Shown: positions 45,824 through 50,361 of the stretch, one piece after another
How positions within the stretch are numbered: the first letter of the stretch is position 1
Layout of the letters: every line of letters begins with the position of its first letter
DNA from: an uncultured Candidatus Saccharibacteria bacterium
GTDB lineage: Bacteria > Patescibacteriota > JABMPQ01 > JAQVVF01
DNA: 64,000 bases
Assembly (NCBI GenBank): GCA_964574655.1
Contig: CAZNOH010000002.1
Span: forward strand, 172,596 to 236,595
Direction: 5' to 3'
Made by a program: the position numbers and the translations under genes
Notes under the pieces: generated by a model
What the model was told of the DNA's origin: nothing
Seen by the model: the letters and a program-made list of their open reading frames with translations, nothing else
Database searches by the model: none

Positions 45824-48800
45824 ATGGCCAAACGACGTAGATTGAAACTTTTAGTGTCAACCGTTTTAGCAAGTTTTAGCTTAATTTTTTGCAGTTTATC
45901 CTTCGGTCAATCAATCATTCGCAATGGCGGTTTTGAAAATGGCATGAACTCTTGGTTGAATGAAAACGACTTAAATGTCGCTCAATTTAGCACGGATTGT
46001 CAGCAAGCCTTTTCCGGCAATTGTTCAGCAAGAGTTGATGTTTCTAACGCAGTCAATGTCCACCAAGTTCAACTCAAACAGAATTTTGCAGTTCAGCAAA
46101 ATGTTGCTTACGCGCTTGTCTTTTCTGCCAAAGCTTCACGCAATCGCACTATTGAAGTTGAAGCCAATCAAGACCACGATCCCTGGAATCAAGTCAGTTT
46201 TTACAACGTAATCAATCTGACCACTTCCTGGCAAACTTTCCATTATAACTTTTTTGGCGCACTTAATGACAATCTCTACAAGCTGACTTTTCATGTTGGC
46301 AACGATGTTTCAACAGTTTGGGTTGATGATGTTTCCATCACTCAGCAAATTCTGCCATTACCAGACGGCAGTCTAGTTTTCAATCGTGATTTTGAAGAAG
46401 GTACTCTTGACTTCTGGAATACTGAAAACTATGTCCAGGCCGGCCGATTCTCCAAGGATTGCGCTGTCGCAGCTTCGGGTAGATGTTCTGCCAAGATAGA
46501 AGTTCTCAGCGTCACAGATTGCTGGCAGGTTCAACTCAAGCAAGCTTTCCCCCTGGAACTGCAGCGTCGCTACCGTATCTCTTTTTCCGCCAAAAGCACA
46601 GCTAACAGAGTCATTACACTCGATGTGCACCGTGATTATAGTCCTTGGGGAAATAGCCAAATTTATCAGCAAGTCAATATTACTTCGCAATGGCAATCAT
46701 TTGAGTATACTTTTACAGGACAGGTGAATGATAGTCGCTATCGCGCTGCTTTCCATGTCGGCAATAATCTTAATACTGTCTGGATTGATAATGTTTTTCT
46801 TCGCTATGACATTGTCCAACCACCACCCAACCAAGCGCCAACAGTCTCGATTACTTCTGGACCAAATGGTAACATCAATCAGAACTCAGCCACTTTCACT
46901 TTTAGCGGTACAGACGCTGATGGTCAAATCGCTGGCTATTACTACGGTTTAGACAATGCCAATCCTAACACATTCACCAATGCCAACAGTTTTACTTGGA
47001 GCAATCTTTCCGCAGGTCAACACACTTTCTACATCAAATCTGTTGATAACAGCAATGCTTTTTCTGCAATTGTCAATCGGACTTTCACTTACGTAATTCC
47101 GCCACCGCCTAACCAAGTACCAACAGTTTCGATCACTTCCGGACCAAATGGCGTTATAAATCAGAATTCAGCCACATTTACTTTTAACGGAATTGATTCT
47201 GATGGCCTTGTCACCGGTTATTATTATGGACTTGATCTTCCCAACCCCAACACTTTTACCGTCAATAATCAGTTCATTTGGAGCAATCTTATCGCCGGTC
47301 AACATACCTTCTATGTTCTAGCACAAGATGATGACGGAGCCTCTTCAGCGATTGTCAGTCGGACTTTCACTTACATTGTCCAACCGCCGCCCAACCAAGC
47401 GCCAACAGTTTTGATTACTTCCGGACCAATGGATATTATCAACCATAATTCTGCCACTTTCATTTTTGAGGGATGGGATCCGGATGGAATAATTGTTGGA
47501 TTTTACTATGATTTGGATAATCCCAATCCGTCTAACTGGAATACAACAGGCAGTGTTGGTTTTTCCAATCTTTCGATTGGCCAGCACATTTTTTATGTCA
47601 AAGCTGTTGATGACGGAAACGCTTTTTCAGCAATTGTTTCTTTAGTCTTCTCTTATCAAGCGCAAGCTCCGCCTCCACCAGATCGTCCAGTTGTCAACAT
47701 GTTGCGCAATCCTAGCTTTGAAGTTAACGGCGGTCTTGAATCTTGGTTGTCAGAAAATCATCAGAATACAGCTCAATTCTTTAGAGATTGCAATAATGTC
47801 GCCAGTCATGGTAGCTGTTCAGCGAGAATTGAAAATTCACGCATTGTTGAAGTTTATAATGTTCAGCTCAAGCAGATTATTCCGATGGAACAGCGAGAAT
47901 ATAAAGGATCGTTTTCGGCAAAGAGTTCCAGTAATCGCCCTATTACTTTAGACATTCATCGTGACTATAGTCCTTGGGGTGACAGTCAGATTTACCAGCA
48001 ATATAATCTGACCACGCAATGGCAAACTTTTGAATTCTCTTTCACTGGAAGGCTTACCGATGATCATTTCCGAATTACTTTTCACATCGGTGACAACACT
48101 CCCGCAGTCTGGCTTGATAATATTGTCTTAGGCTATCGTAATGGCGATGCTCCAAATAGGCCAGTCAATCAACCTCCTCAGGCCAATATTCTTTCCGGTC
48201 CTTCTGGAACAATAAATCAGAACTTTGCCAACTTCACTTTTTCTGGCTCTGATCCTGATGGCCAAGTTATCTACTATATGATCGGCCTCGACGATCCTCT
48301 TAATTTGAATATTTACAATAATTCTGGCATGTACACTTGGGGAAATCTAGGCACAGGTGAAAGAACTTTCTTTATCAAAGCTTATGATGATTTGGGTGAC
48401 GCTTCTCCGCTTGTTTATAGAACTTTCATTTATCAAATACATCAAGATCCACAAGCTCAGAATCCGCTTGCTCAAGATCCACCAGCTCAAAATAATCCGC
48501 CACAACCAGTTATTGAAGAAGATGATACTGTGGCTGTTGTTAGCACTGGCACATTGCGAATAGCTTCTGCAAACGATAACGACAATAATGCTATTTATGC
48601 AATTGCCTTAGTTATACCAAATCGCAATCCTATTCCCAAAGCTTACTTTGAAAGATACGCCTCGGCCAATAATCCGATAGTCGGTAATGTTAGCCGTGAA
48701 AATCATTTTCCTGAAGGATTCTATTATGTCACCACGCAAAATGGCTGGGTACTGGCATCCTATGATACTTCCAAAGCGCCACACAGCATTGGCAGCGGAC

Positions 48801-49810
48801 TTTGGAATAAATATAAGGTCTTAGCCTCTGCCAGTTTCAATGCCAATGACAATGTTTTTGGTTGGCATCGTTATTTGCCGGTCAGTGGTGAACAAAGCGG
48901 TATTCCTTCAGCAATTTCCGGAAGTTTCAATCAGTACTTCAAGTTGCAAAATATTAACACCGATCAAATTGCCTCTATTGTCCACTATTCAAGTCCTTGG
49001 AGCAATTACTACGGCCAAAGCTTTGGTGTGCGTGGCAAACCATGGGAATTTTGGCGCAACTTTGGTTATGGCAGTTCAGGATTCGGTCTGCCAATTTCTG
49101 ATGGAGATAGCAACATAGCTACCTTTGAAAATGGGCAAGTGGAGTATTTCAATGATTTCGAATTTGCAGTTCATATGGGTGGAGAATTAATTGCAAGTGG
49201 TGGCGGCAATGCCGTTGAACCATTTGGCGGATTCTTTGATCAGTGTGAAGGCATCTTAATTGATACCATAGAAGATTTTGGCAACAATGTTAATACAGTT
49301 TTTCTGAATGATAATGCCTCAGCAATCCAAAGAGGAATTGCTCTAGGCTTAATCACACTAGATATTGTTCCTGTTGGACGAGCAGCCAGAATTGGCGCTC
49401 GAACAACTCCAGTCATGCTTCGTCAAGCTATGGAAAGAATGCCAATCTCTATCCGACGAGCCATGGGTGGTGTCGGCAGGATCAAAAGTTTCGGTAAAAT
49501 TCTTGTCAATGAAGAAGTACGCACTATTGCCAACAATCTCACAAGTCGTGGTGGCGTTAGACTCAGTCTTGACAAAGCCAAAAATATTTTGATTACTCAT
49601 AGTCCCTTCCGTTTTCGCGAAGGTTCACCTTCCAACTTTTTCCCGCTCAATTGGAATGAACAGGAGATATTAACAACTGTCAAAAGCGTCGCCGATCAAT
49701 GCGATCGAGTGGGGCTTTGTAGACGAACAGTTCGCGGAATCATCGTTGAAGTGCGCATTGAAATAGACAATGGCGTCCGTTATATCCAAAACGCCTGGCC
49801 AGTTTACTGA
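45824..49810 (+). CDS. Giant secreted repeat protein: 3x CBM4/9-like modules, 4x Ig/FN3-like ~95-aa repeats, Pro-rich linker, LGFP-like repeat region and an unassigned ~200-aa C-terminal domain
   Basis: Signal peptide. Repeated 'NGGFE.G...W....D.N...F..DC...ASG.CSA...V....VQLKQ...' (CBM4_9-like) and 'PPNQAPTV.ITSGPNG.INQNSATFTF.G.D.DG...GYYYGLD' repeats. 'FWRNFGYGSSGFGLPISDGD...ENGQVEYF' resembles LGFP. Strong SD GCAGGAGGAAGAG. Confidence 0.8.
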   Translation: MAKRRRLKLLVSTVLASFSLIFCSLSFGQSIIRNGGFENGMNSWLNENDLNVAQFSTDCQQAFSGNCSARVDVSNAVNVHQVQLKQNFAVQQNVAYALVFSAKASRNRTIEVEANQDHDPWNQVSFYNVINLTTSWQTFHYNFFGALNDNLYKLTFHVGNDVSTVWVDDVSITQQILPLPDGSLVFNRDFEEGTLDFWNTENYVQAGRFSKDCAVAASGRCSAKIEVLSVTDCWQVQLKQAFPLELQRRYRISFSAKSTANRVITLDVHRDYSPWGNSQIYQQVNITSQWQSFEYTFTGQVNDSRYRAAFHVGNNLNTVWIDNVFLRYDIVQPPPNQAPTVSITSGPNGNINQNSATFTFSGTDADGQIAGYYYGLDNANPNTFTNANSFTWSNLSAGQHTFYIKSVDNSNAFSAIVNRTFTYVIPPPPNQVPTVSITSGPNGVINQNSATFTFNGIDSDGLVTGYYYGLDLPNPNTFTVNNQFIWSNLIAGQHTFYVLAQDDDGASSAIVSRTFTYIVQPPPNQAPTVLITSGPMDIINHNSATFIFEGWDPDGIIVGFYYDLDNPNPSNWNTTGSVGFSNLSIGQHIFYVKAVDDGNAFSAIVSLVFSYQAQAPPPPDRPVVNMLRNPSFEVNGGLESWLSENHQNTAQFFRDCNNVASHGSCSARIENSRIVEVYNVQLKQIIPMEQREYKGSFSAKSSSNRPITLDIHRDYSPWGDSQIYQQYNLTTQWQTFEFSFTGRLTDDHFRITFHIGDNTPAVWLDNIVLGYRNGDAPNRPVNQPPQANILSGPSGTINQNFANFTFSGSDPDGQVIYYMIGLDDPLNLNIYNNSGMYTWGNLGTGERTFFIKAYDDLGDASPLVYRTFIYQIHQDPQAQNPLAQDPPAQNNPPQPVIEEDDTVAVVSTGTLRIASANDNDNNAIYAIALVIPNRNPIPKAYFERYASANNPIVGNVSRENHFPEGFYYVTTQNGWVLASYDTSKAPHSIGSGLWNKYKVLASASFNANDNVFGWHRYLPVSGEQSGIPSAISGSFNQYFKLQNINTDQIASIVHYSSPWSNYYGQSFGVRGKPWEFWRNFGYGSSGFGLPISDGDSNIATFENGQVEYFNDFEFAVHMGGELIASGGGNAVEPFGGFFDQCEGILIDTIEDFGNNVNTVFLNDNASAIQRGIALGLITLDIVPVGRAARIGARTTPVMLRQAMERMPISIRRAMGGVGRIKSFGKILVNEEVRTIANNLTSRGGVRLSLDKAKNILITHSPFRFREGSPSNFFPLNWNEQEILTTVKSVADQCDRVGLCRRTVRGIIVEVRIEIDNGVRYIQNAWPVY

Positions 49811-49839
49811 GCAGACACTCCAAGAAAAAGGAGGAAGTG

Positions 49840-50361
49840 ATGAAATATTTAGCAATCATTATTTTTTCTTTTATTTTTCTTTTCAGTTGCGAAGTCAAAG
49901 ATCCTGATCTGGAGCAACCGAAAGTCCAAATTTTTACCAATGACCCATCCACAACACCACCAAATAATCCAGCTACTCCGCCAGAAAATCCTGTTGCCGC
50001 TACACCCGAAGTCAGTACGGAGGCCAGCTTTACTCTAACTCAATATCCATTTCACTTTTACCTGCAAGAGAATGACAGATTAGCTATCAAAGGTCTTGAT
50101 GAACAGTTTCTAAGCCTTGACCTTCTTCAAGATTTCAATCTTGCCGTTGATACAAACTATCGAATGCAAGATATCTATTATCCTGTTATTGACTCCGTGA
50201 ATAATCAAGTCACAATTTTCCGACGCAAAGACAATTCTCAATTCATGATTCTAGACACTGGCCATAATCCTCAAGACGCTGTTCTTTTCTACAACTATCT
50301 ATTTATTGCCAATACCAATGATCGCGAAATTGGCATTGTCAGCTTTATCAATCTAGACTAG
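49840..50361 (+). CDS. Lipoprotein, hypothetical (co-transcribed with the giant protein)
   Basis: Lipobox 'LFSC', Pro/Thr-rich linker. SD 'aaaaggagga'. Hairpin plus T-run terminator at ~50383-50410. Confidence 0.6.
   Translation: MKYLAIIIFSFIFLFSCEVKDPDLEQPKVQIFTNDPSTTPPNNPATPPENPVAATPEVSTEASFTLTQYPFHFYLQENDRLAIKGLDEQFLSLDLLQDFNLAVDTNYRMQDIYYPVIDSVNNQVTIFRRKDNSQFMILDTGHNPQDAVLFYNYLFIANTNDREIGIVSFINLD

Follow-up and report, generated by a model that had tools for sequence, protein, structure and literature searches.

A compositionally foreign two-gene operon in a Patescibacteria chromosome, predicted to encode a giant glycan-binding secreted protein with a possibly EndoU-like tip and a lipoprotein partner

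The stretch of DNA analyzed here, 64,000 nt of contig CAZNOH010000002.1 from an uncultured Candidatus Saccharibacteria bacterium (positions 172,596 to 236,595; hereafter the window, to which all coordinates refer), contains a compositionally foreign operon of two genes in a chromosome of Patescibacteria, the candidate phyla radiation (CPR). The first gene encodes a giant protein that is predicted to be exported and to consist of a scaffold of carbohydrate-binding modules (CBM) and immunoglobulin-like (Ig-like) modules, followed by a last third that ends in a small basic tip; the second gene encodes a predicted lipoprotein. The operon may specify a contact weapon or an attachment device. The interpretation favored here, with a confidence that stays slightly short of an even chance, is that the giant protein is a surface effector that depends on contact, has a divergent tip of BECR/EndoU-like type and is partnered by the lipoprotein. 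A toxin role is unproven, and the evidence for this more exciting of the possibilities consists of one sub-threshold profile match and of context.

Organization and composition of the operon

The operon and its signals comprise the following features, from calls of open reading frames (ORFs), profile matches and direct reading of the sequence:

45739..45759 (+), terminator-like hairpin (8-bp stem, T-run) at the left edge of the GC-rich island
45813..45818 (+), AGGAGG ribosome-binding site of the giant gene, 5 nt before the ATG, read from the sequence
45824..49810 (+), giant gene (ORF call), 1328 aa, predicted secreted modular protein (public singleton P0002)
45824..45907 (+), predicted Sec-type signal peptide, aa 1-28, MAKRRRLKLLVSTVLASFSLIFCSLSFG followed by QS; Kyte-Doolittle windows at aa 6-14 only, cleavage site placed by eye
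45911..46813 (+), CBM_4_9 modules 1 and 2 (Pfam PF02018), aa ~30-178 and 180-330, with 41% mutual aa identity
46817..47713 (+), three tandem Ig-like (Y_Y_Y-type) repeats (Pfam PF07495), aa 332-630, with 56-71% aa identity and a 282-nt period
47687..48178 (+), CBM_4_9 module 3 (PF02018), aa ~622-785, with 55% aa identity to module 2
48194..48448 (+), fourth Ig-like (Y_Y_Y) repeat, aa ~791-875, best Y_Y_Y stretch aa 809-872, with 38-51% identity to repeats 1-3
48442..48514 (+), Gln/Pro-rich linker QDPQAQNPLAQDPPAQNNPPQP, aa ~874-897, partly encoded by a 15-nt tandem repeat
48515..49198 (+), aromatic-rich orphan middle module, aa ~898-1125, with no family match
49199..49528 (+), orphan pre-tip region, aa 1126-1235, including the semi-hydrophobic stretch GIALGLITLDIVPVGRAARIG, with no Pfam match
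49529..49810 (+), basic C-terminal tip, aa 1236-1328, in which aa 1266-1326 match PF14436; contains H1259 and ends in N1323-A-W-P-V-Y
49829..49834 (+), AGGAGG ribosome-binding site of the lipoprotein gene, 5 nt before the ATG, read from the sequence
49840..50361 (+), lipoprotein gene (ORF call, ATG start), 173 aa, orphan (public singleton P0001)
50381..50412 (+), intrinsic-terminator-like hairpin (9-bp stem, hairpin proper 50381-50402) and T-run that close the operon and the GC-rich island

The giant gene is separated from the ATG of the lipoprotein gene by a spacer of 29 nt, and because a terminator scan of this spacer found none, the two genes are assigned to one operon. The lipoprotein most likely starts at the ATG at 49840, which gives the length in its public record, and not at the GTG at 49837, which would add one residue. 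A first-pass annotation of the same DNA, made by a model from the letters alone, had described a 1328-aa protein with a quoted C-terminal sequence, a co-directional downstream gene for a 174-aa lipoprotein, and a terminator behind it; the giant ORF was found with that C-terminus, the lipoprotein gene was found with its lipobox and its own ribosome-binding site but one residue shorter, and the terminator corresponds to the hairpin and T-run listed above. At the other edge, the left hairpin lies 114 nt past the stop codon of the upstream gene, which encodes a DUF4352 protein.

The first-pass annotation had also called the giant gene richer in GC than its surroundings, and the measured composition agrees: the GC content of the gene is 0.423 compared to a mean of 0.335 ± 0.033 for the ORFs of the window, and its GC content at third codon positions (GC3) of 0.360 is the highest of 57 ORFs, with a z score of 2.8 against the 55 other ORFs (0.263 ± 0.035). 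The lipoprotein gene has a GC3 of 0.333 (z 2.0 against the same 55 ORFs). Since GC3 is raised in both genes, the shift in composition holds at synonymous sites, and all segments of the giant gene show the raised GC content. The GC profile changes from approximately 0.28-0.31 outside to 0.39-0.52 between the two hairpins, rising at ~45800 and falling at ~50400, and just past the island (50400-50599) it is 0.23. Three further sequencing runs, as assembled in Logan, contain window positions 44467-46317, 44150-45814 and 49420-50447 at 99.9-100% identity, and both junctions of the island were recovered at 100% identity in assemblies of other runs (L072, L001); the edges of the island are therefore not an assembly chimera.

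Domain architecture of the giant protein

The N-terminal two thirds of the giant protein are predicted to form a glycan-binding and spacing scaffold of three CBM4/9 jelly-rolls and four Ig-like Y_Y_Y modules, which are the numbers of CBM-like and Ig-like domains given in the first-pass annotation. The CBM_4_9 profile matches three stretches with E 1.1e-33 and 117 bits (cutoff 25.9), and the Y_Y_Y profile matches with E 1e-10 and 41.8 bits (cutoff 26.6); aa identity among all four Ig-like repeats is 38-71%, and repeats 1-3 are visible in the DNA as direct-repeat families D1-D4. The net charge of the scaffold is -31. The signal peptide is the sole hydrophobic segment of the protein; a transmembrane segment, a C-terminal LPXTG motif and a lipobox were all looked for and none was found, nor was any Pfam anchoring or sorting domain. 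Cys residues are paired in the CBMs, and the tip contains a C-x5-C pair (CDRVGLC, 49703-49723, aa 1293-1299) between the predicted helix and the first strand; these pairs suggest extracellular disulfides.

A search with the full-length protein found 45 matching proteins, all of which align to CBM or Ig-like repeats (25-41% identity over 5-42% of the query), and none of the alignments extends past aa ~950. The middle module has no match in Pfam (scans were made with a reporting limit of E ≤ 10, and the HMMER filters drop most matches above ~0.1), the Protein Data Bank (PDB), PADLOC or PHROG, and no significant internal repeats (z -0.4 to 1.5). The pre-tip region, which could be a linker or an entry segment, retrieved itself alone from 1.84e9 representatives; a tblastn match of this region (L152, E 0.027), which lies in a gene that by eye looks like dihydropteroate synthase and in a genome that seems unrelated, was dismissed as a chance match. 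With the last 203 aa, a word-indexed homologue search gave no match and an exhaustive phmmer search of 1.84 billion cluster representatives gave the query alone. Both proteins of the operon are singleton clusters in public data, and neither has a relative in 153 fetched loci. A scan of GTDB genomes with the full giant protein gave no match, from which it follows that the source genome is not one of the species representatives, and a plasmid tblastn search and scans of viral contigs gave none either; a metagenome scan with the neighbouring PFOR beta protein gave a top match of 56% identity and no syntenic relatives. No meaningful match to the tip or the middle module was obtained from PDB sequences, PADLOC, PHROGs and NCBIfam contain no match to the tip, the middle module or the lipoprotein, and neither paralogues nor displaced fragments of the two proteins were found in the window. 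Judged by these searches, the last third of the giant protein is lineage-unique.

Three candidate assignments were rejected. An LGFP-like segment had been proposed in the first-pass annotation, but neither the region nor its best 52-aa segment matches the LGFP repeat (PF08310) in Pfam, internal repeats are not significant, and the one LGFP-like motif (aa 1083-1108, nt 49070-49147) fits by eye only. A resemblance of LDIVPVGRAARIG to PT-TG has no support from Pfam. As for the tip being the target of a diversity-generating retroelement, the tip-coding DNA has no repeat longer than 39 nt in the window, and no reverse transcriptase was found among the part of the window's ORFs that was scanned.

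The C-terminal tip and its EndoU_bacteria match

The last ~200 aa, in which the first-pass annotation recognized nothing, indeed have no detectable relatives, but 61 aa at their end match the EndoU_bacteria profile (PF14436) weakly and below its threshold. It is the single Pfam family that matches the tip. The alignment places aa 1266-1326 on profile positions 64-127 of 129, which is the C-terminal half of the profile, and stops two residues short of both the profile end and the protein end (1326 of 1328). The match has E 0.0066 and 17.2 bits when the whole protein is the query, E 0.001 and 19.9 bits with the last 203 aa, and E 2.2e-4 and 22.0 bits with the last 93 aa, whereas the best match of nine control sequences (one reversed, eight shuffled) has E 0.08 and is to an unrelated family. 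Domains of the EndoU_bacteria family are typically the last domain of secreted multidomain toxins. Upstream of the aligned stretch, aa 1126-1265 alone have no match in Pfam, and the N-terminal BECR unit of EndoU is not recognizable.

Other properties of the tip are consistent with a BECR unit at the level of motifs and secondary structure. The end of the tip, N1323-A-W1325-P1326-V-Y, has a polar-x-aromatic-Pro motif in which the [SNT] residue is present, and the C-terminus of Nsp15 EndoU in PDB sequences is the active-site strand T-F-Y-P-K-L-Q. Over the 133 residues of aa 1196-1328, which include 16 Arg, the net charge is +9, and H1259 is flanked by K1251, K1253, R1263 and R1265. Structural models of the tip, although poor, contain a terminal helix followed by a three-strand meander, which is mildly consistent with a BECR unit. 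Tox-EndoU consists of two BECR units with the signature H, H, [SNT], [SNT], and many single-unit BECR toxin clades carry one His or none (PMC3482391); the canonical catalytic triad of EndoU sits in the N-terminal subdomain (PMC9086364).

The lipoprotein partner

The second gene encodes a predicted outward-facing acidic lipoprotein on a long Pro-rich tether, consisting of a signal peptide with the lipobox LFSC (Cys17), a Pro/Thr-rich linker of ~40 aa (aa ~18-60) and an acidic globular domain of ~110 aa. The lipobox, MKYLAIIIFSFIFLFS-C17, fits [LVI][ASTVI][GAS]C once position -2 is relaxed (Phe), and lipidation is predicted. The net charge of the mature protein is -14. A homologue search returned the lipoprotein itself alone, and it matches no family and no known Imm family in Pfam, NCBIfam, PADLOC or PHROG.

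Nucleases and their inhibitors usually show this pattern, the effector being basic and its partner acidic; the charge pairing of the basic tip and the acidic lipoprotein would equally suit a docking pair. The first-pass annotation had placed the lipoprotein in the position of an immunity or partner protein. Its acidity and its place in the operon suit such a role, but because it faces outward it would be atypical as the immunity protein of an RNase that acts in the cytoplasm. TipC provides a precedent in monoderms for a membrane-anchored, outward-facing immunity protein (PMC6193138).

Proposed function and alternatives

In the favored interpretation, the operon would have been acquired horizontally by a Patescibacteria chromosome. 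The giant protein would be exported by the Sec pathway, capable of forming disulfides and displayed on the surface of a monoderm-type cell, where its CBMs would bind a polysaccharide of a neighbouring or host cell. The small basic tip would be the effector, a highly divergent alpha+beta module of BECR/EndoU type that may retain the terminal [SNT]-x-aromatic-Pro substrate strand and may bind RNA or some other anionic polymer and possibly cleave it. As there is no classical His-His-Lys triad, a non-canonical active site is proposed, in which H1259 would act together with K1251, K1253, R1263 and R1265. The lipoprotein would bind the tip at the surface of the producer as a neutralizing (immunity) partner, a docking partner, or both. 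A bolder version is considered unlikely: that this is a new contact-dependent effector system in CPR, in which a Sec-exported, CBM-targeted surface protein would carry to a host cell or a rival a tip that derives from BECR/EndoU, lacks the triad and has diverged radically, and in which self-protection would be provided by an extracellular lipoprotein that caps the tip at the producer's surface, in place of a cytoplasmic immunity protein.

Several results weigh against an effector function. All three EndoU_bacteria scores are under the curated cutoff of 25.3 bits, and half of the domain is aligned. H1259 is the single His in aa 1150-1328, which excludes the canonical His-His-Lys triad, and there is no Lys at the expected position. 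Pairwise alignment of the tip with the C-terminal unit of Nsp15 EndoU is not significant (z 0.2-0.9). Profile and structure searches of the C-terminus, of the kind suggested in the first-pass annotation, gave, apart from the sub-threshold profile match, no structural relative: two single-sequence AlphaFold2 models (203 aa and 133 aa) are poor, with pLDDT of 35.5 and 36.7, and Foldseek found nothing below E 0.39 with either; its top PDB matches, to a contact-dependent inhibition (CDI) complex (7m5f_C, E 0.39) and to Nsp15 (9mru_A, E 1.3), are non-significant and were given no weight. By Pfam and NCBIfam, neither the full protein nor its sub-segments contain RHS, FilH, HINT, PT-TG, VENN, LXG-type, pre-toxin, processing or translocation modules. 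Neither scaffold relatives with alternative tips nor orphan tip-immunity cassettes were found, in a sample without close relatives; in none of the proteins retrieved is the scaffold joined to the middle or C-terminal part, and for lack of relatives tip polymorphism is undemonstrated. As to the partner, toxins that act in the cytoplasm normally have cytoplasmic immunity proteins, with one lipoprotein immunity family described (Zhang et al., PMC3482391), and TipC neutralizes a toxin that acts outside the membrane (PMC6193138). Of the idea in the first-pass annotation that this is a polymorphic toxin with a functional tip, what stands is the EndoU_bacteria match, the charges and the foreign operon; set against it are the score below threshold and the missing triad, trafficking modules and alternative tips.

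A serious possibility, though one held with less confidence, is that the giant protein is an attachment adhesin and not a toxin. It would bind glycan and hold a host cell or matrix, its C-terminal third would dock on the lipoprotein as an anchor, and the EndoU_bacteria match would be due to chance or to a catalytically dead BECR remnant reused for binding. Because the giant protein has no transmembrane segment, LPXTG motif, lipobox or Pfam anchoring domain of its own, this possibility has it need a partner to stay on the cell, and the outward-facing lipoprotein has a Pro-rich tether of ~40 aa and a charge opposite to that of the tip, which fits docking just as well as inhibition. Scaffolds of CBM and Ig-like modules are typical of adhesins and binding proteins, and each of the 45 database matches is a protein of this kind; the type IV pilus genes and another surface protein with Ig-like and CarboxypepD_reg domains in the window fit a lifestyle of surface interaction; and the lack of a catalytic His pair, of a processing or translocation module and of tip polymorphism also favors an adhesin. 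An adhesin accounts less well for the fact that the one family-level signal in the tip is to a toxin domain, specific in comparison with the controls and placed exactly as in toxins, and for a tip so strongly basic and Arg-rich, which is more typical of nucleic-acid binders.

Two further explanations have smaller chances. CBM_4_9 modules usually accompany glycoside hydrolases, and with three copies present the protein might be a secreted polysaccharide-active enzyme, whose CBM4/9 modules bring a novel catalytic domain, situated in the middle module, the C-terminus or both, to its glycan, for example a polysaccharide of the host wall, with the lipoprotein as an accessory binding or uptake protein. 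The middle module, aromatic-rich and without a family, could be such a domain, and two other genes of the window, for a GDPD and an M23 peptidase, suggest that the cell scavenges material from envelopes; however, Pfam scans at the reporting limit of E ≤ 10 matched no glycoside hydrolase, lyase or esterase family, there are no conserved relatives by which catalytic residues could be defined, and an RNase toxin family is all that the C-terminal third matches, so that an enzyme of this kind is distinctly unlikely. That the operon is cargo of a phage or mobile element, such as a pair for receptor binding or superinfection exclusion that an integrated element left behind, is highly improbable: the foreign composition and the downstream neighbours associated with defence or phages (AbiEii, Bro-N, PDC-S13, phrog_15286) are as expected of such cargo, but the orphan parts of the giant protein and the lipoprotein have no PHROG match and no relatives among viral contigs or plasmids, no integrase or tRNA was found at the borders, flanking direct repeats are AT-rich low-complexity matches only, and the neighbours other than Bro-N are host-like in GC. 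Readings beyond those weighed here share an equally slight chance.

Patescibacteria are ubiquitous obligate episymbionts, and little is known of how they recognize, hold and exploit their hosts. Should the tip prove to be an effector, the operon would offer a concrete, testable candidate for host interaction or antagonism, a horizontally acquired and lineage-unique surface protein in which glycan-binding modules are coupled to an effector-like tip. The radiation of BECR/EndoU toxins would then reach into CPR, with an active site that is non-canonical and a partner that faces outward. If the bolder version held, no toxin-immunity-type module would have been characterized in Patescibacteria before this one, and the way in which it confers immunity would be new for an effector of nuclease fold. 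A mere adhesin that docks on a lipoprotein would add modestly to the known surface proteins of CPR. Whichever holds, ~380 residues of the giant protein and a partner of 173 aa have no relative among ~15 billion proteins, and what makes the operon interesting is the lineage of its host, the complete absence of relatives and a partner that, unusually, faces outward.

Comparison with known systems

The closest family by profile is that of bacterial EndoU toxins (PF14436; Tox-EndoU, Zhang et al. 2012; for example CdiA-CT STECO31 and MafB NEM8013), in which the toxin likewise forms the very C-terminal end of a large, secreted protein of many domains, and a small gene follows downstream. The C-terminal alpha+beta unit of the tip aligns to this profile and ends in a polar-x-aromatic-Pro strand, and the domain is basic. 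Unlike these toxins, the tip is below the family threshold, has no recognizable N-terminal subdomain and has one His, hence no triad; and whereas their partners are cytoplasmic immunity proteins of SUKH, SuFu or Imm28 type, the partner here is a predicted exported lipoprotein. On sequence grounds, the protein fails as a member of EndoU_bacteria on threshold, coverage and catalytic histidines. Single-unit BECR toxins whose active sites are non-canonical (colicin D/E5, Ntox41, Ntox49 and the like) resemble the tip in being small (~90 aa) and basic, with a helix and beta-meander, one N-terminal His and basic residues, but there is no profile match and the resemblance is at the level of motifs and secondary structure only. 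The signature of Ntox41 is [RK]H, [KR] and [ST]xxP (PMC3482391), and the tip has a C-terminal [ST]xxP-like motif.

Among known systems, the one to which the operon appears closest in its way of working is the WapA type of polymorphic toxin, which is Sec-exported and associated with the wall. In WapA of Bacillus subtilis, RHS/YD repeats encapsulate the toxin, and WapI is its cytoplasmic immunity protein. The points of likeness are a producer of monoderm type, a Sec signal at the N-terminus, a region that binds wall or glycan, a C-terminal tip of (here putative) RNase type and a partner gene directly downstream; neither RHS/YD repeats nor a cytoplasmic immunity protein is present here. By its sequence features the operon fails as a classical polymorphic toxin system on pre-toxin modules and on demonstrable tip polymorphism, while the N-terminal secretion signal of such systems is present as the Sec-type signal peptide of aa 1-28. 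The likeness to TelC and TipC of Streptococcus intermedius lies in the immunity protein, TipC being membrane-anchored and facing the inner wall zone (PMC6193138); however, TelC is a lipid II phosphatase of the LXG/type VII secretion system that acts outside the membrane, TipC is held by a transmembrane helix and not by lipid, and neither is related in sequence to the proteins of the operon. Giant surface proteins rich in CBM and Ig-like modules, found in Bacteroidota and others (with PKD, Y_Y_Y and tails of the type IX secretion system, T9SS), share the Y_Y_Y/Ig repeats and CBM_4_9, but none has the middle or C-terminal modules, and many end in T9SS sorting domains, which are absent here.

The host chromosome and neighbouring genes

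The host of the operon is assigned to Patescibacteria from its LigA sequence, which is 88% identical to that of a metagenome-assembled genome (MAG) labelled Patescibacteria group bacterium and 53-59% identical to those of Staskawicz-, Yanofsky- and other Parcubacteria-type MAGs. The contig of the closest relative appears, by coordinate arithmetic, to stop ~3 kb short of the locus. Otherwise the window is ordinary chromosome, encoding RadA, RecG, MurT/GatD, a Clp ATPase, LigA, GatA, PFOR subunits, type IV pilus proteins and a chemotaxis operon.

Downstream of the operon, where the first-pass annotation had named an AbiEii-like pair and a Bro-N gene, the genes in order are a DUF6922 ORF overlapping an AbiEii nucleotidyltransferase (E 1e-14), a secreted PsbP-like protein and the Bro-N gene. 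The Bro-N protein (51981-52865) matches the PADLOC candidate defence family PDC-S13 almost from end to end (2.4e-108) and also phrog_15286 (2.9e-82), and its gene likewise has a raised GC3 (0.329). With neighbours of the AbiEii and Bro-N types, the operon is therefore placed in a small accessory or defence-like patch. The DUF6922 ORF (50509-50916) and the AbiEii ORF (50756-51424) overlap by 161 nt in different frames, and may represent a fusion broken by a frameshift, a pseudogene, or a pair similar to toxin-antitoxin genes whose overlap is unusually long. The secreted PsbP-like protein between AbiEii and Bro-N (51450-51974) matches PsbP_2 with E 3e-5, which is below the cutoff; PsbP/MOG1 domains have been named as fusion partners of immunity proteins (PMC3482391).

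The genes upstream of the operon include putative PFOR alpha (41865-43028) and beta (43889-44836) ORFs, both assigned by eye, the one PFOR ORF scanned being 40812-41576 (Pfam POR). A GDPD gene (43018-43767, E 9e-48) lies between them and overlaps the putative alpha gene by 11 nt, and a perfect 17-bp inverted repeat with a 2-nt loop just 3' of the beta gene (44905-44940) is probably its terminator. The type IV pilus set (23462-28075) consists of a T2SSE ATPase, an N-methyl pilin and an A24 prepilin peptidase, and is followed directly by the gene of a second secreted protein, with a Big_1 domain and two CarboxypepD_reg domains. At the other end of the window, 53105-63440 contains a complete chemotaxis operon with two methyl-accepting chemotaxis proteins, a dCache/HAMP sensor, CheW, CheB, CheA, CheC, CheD and CheY, which seems unusual in genomes as reduced as those of Patescibacteria. 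An amino-acid permease and a glutamate decarboxylase (TIGR01788, 1e-197) at 12179-15322 form a module of the glutamate decarboxylase (GAD) type, for acid resistance or gamma-aminobutyric acid (GABA), in this CPR genome. The lipid II isoglutaminyl synthase pair at 5063-7201 consists of a MurT-like protein, whose match does not reach the equivalog cutoff, and a probable GatD with a GATase_3 domain; a pair of this type points to amidated peptidoglycan of the Gram-positive type.

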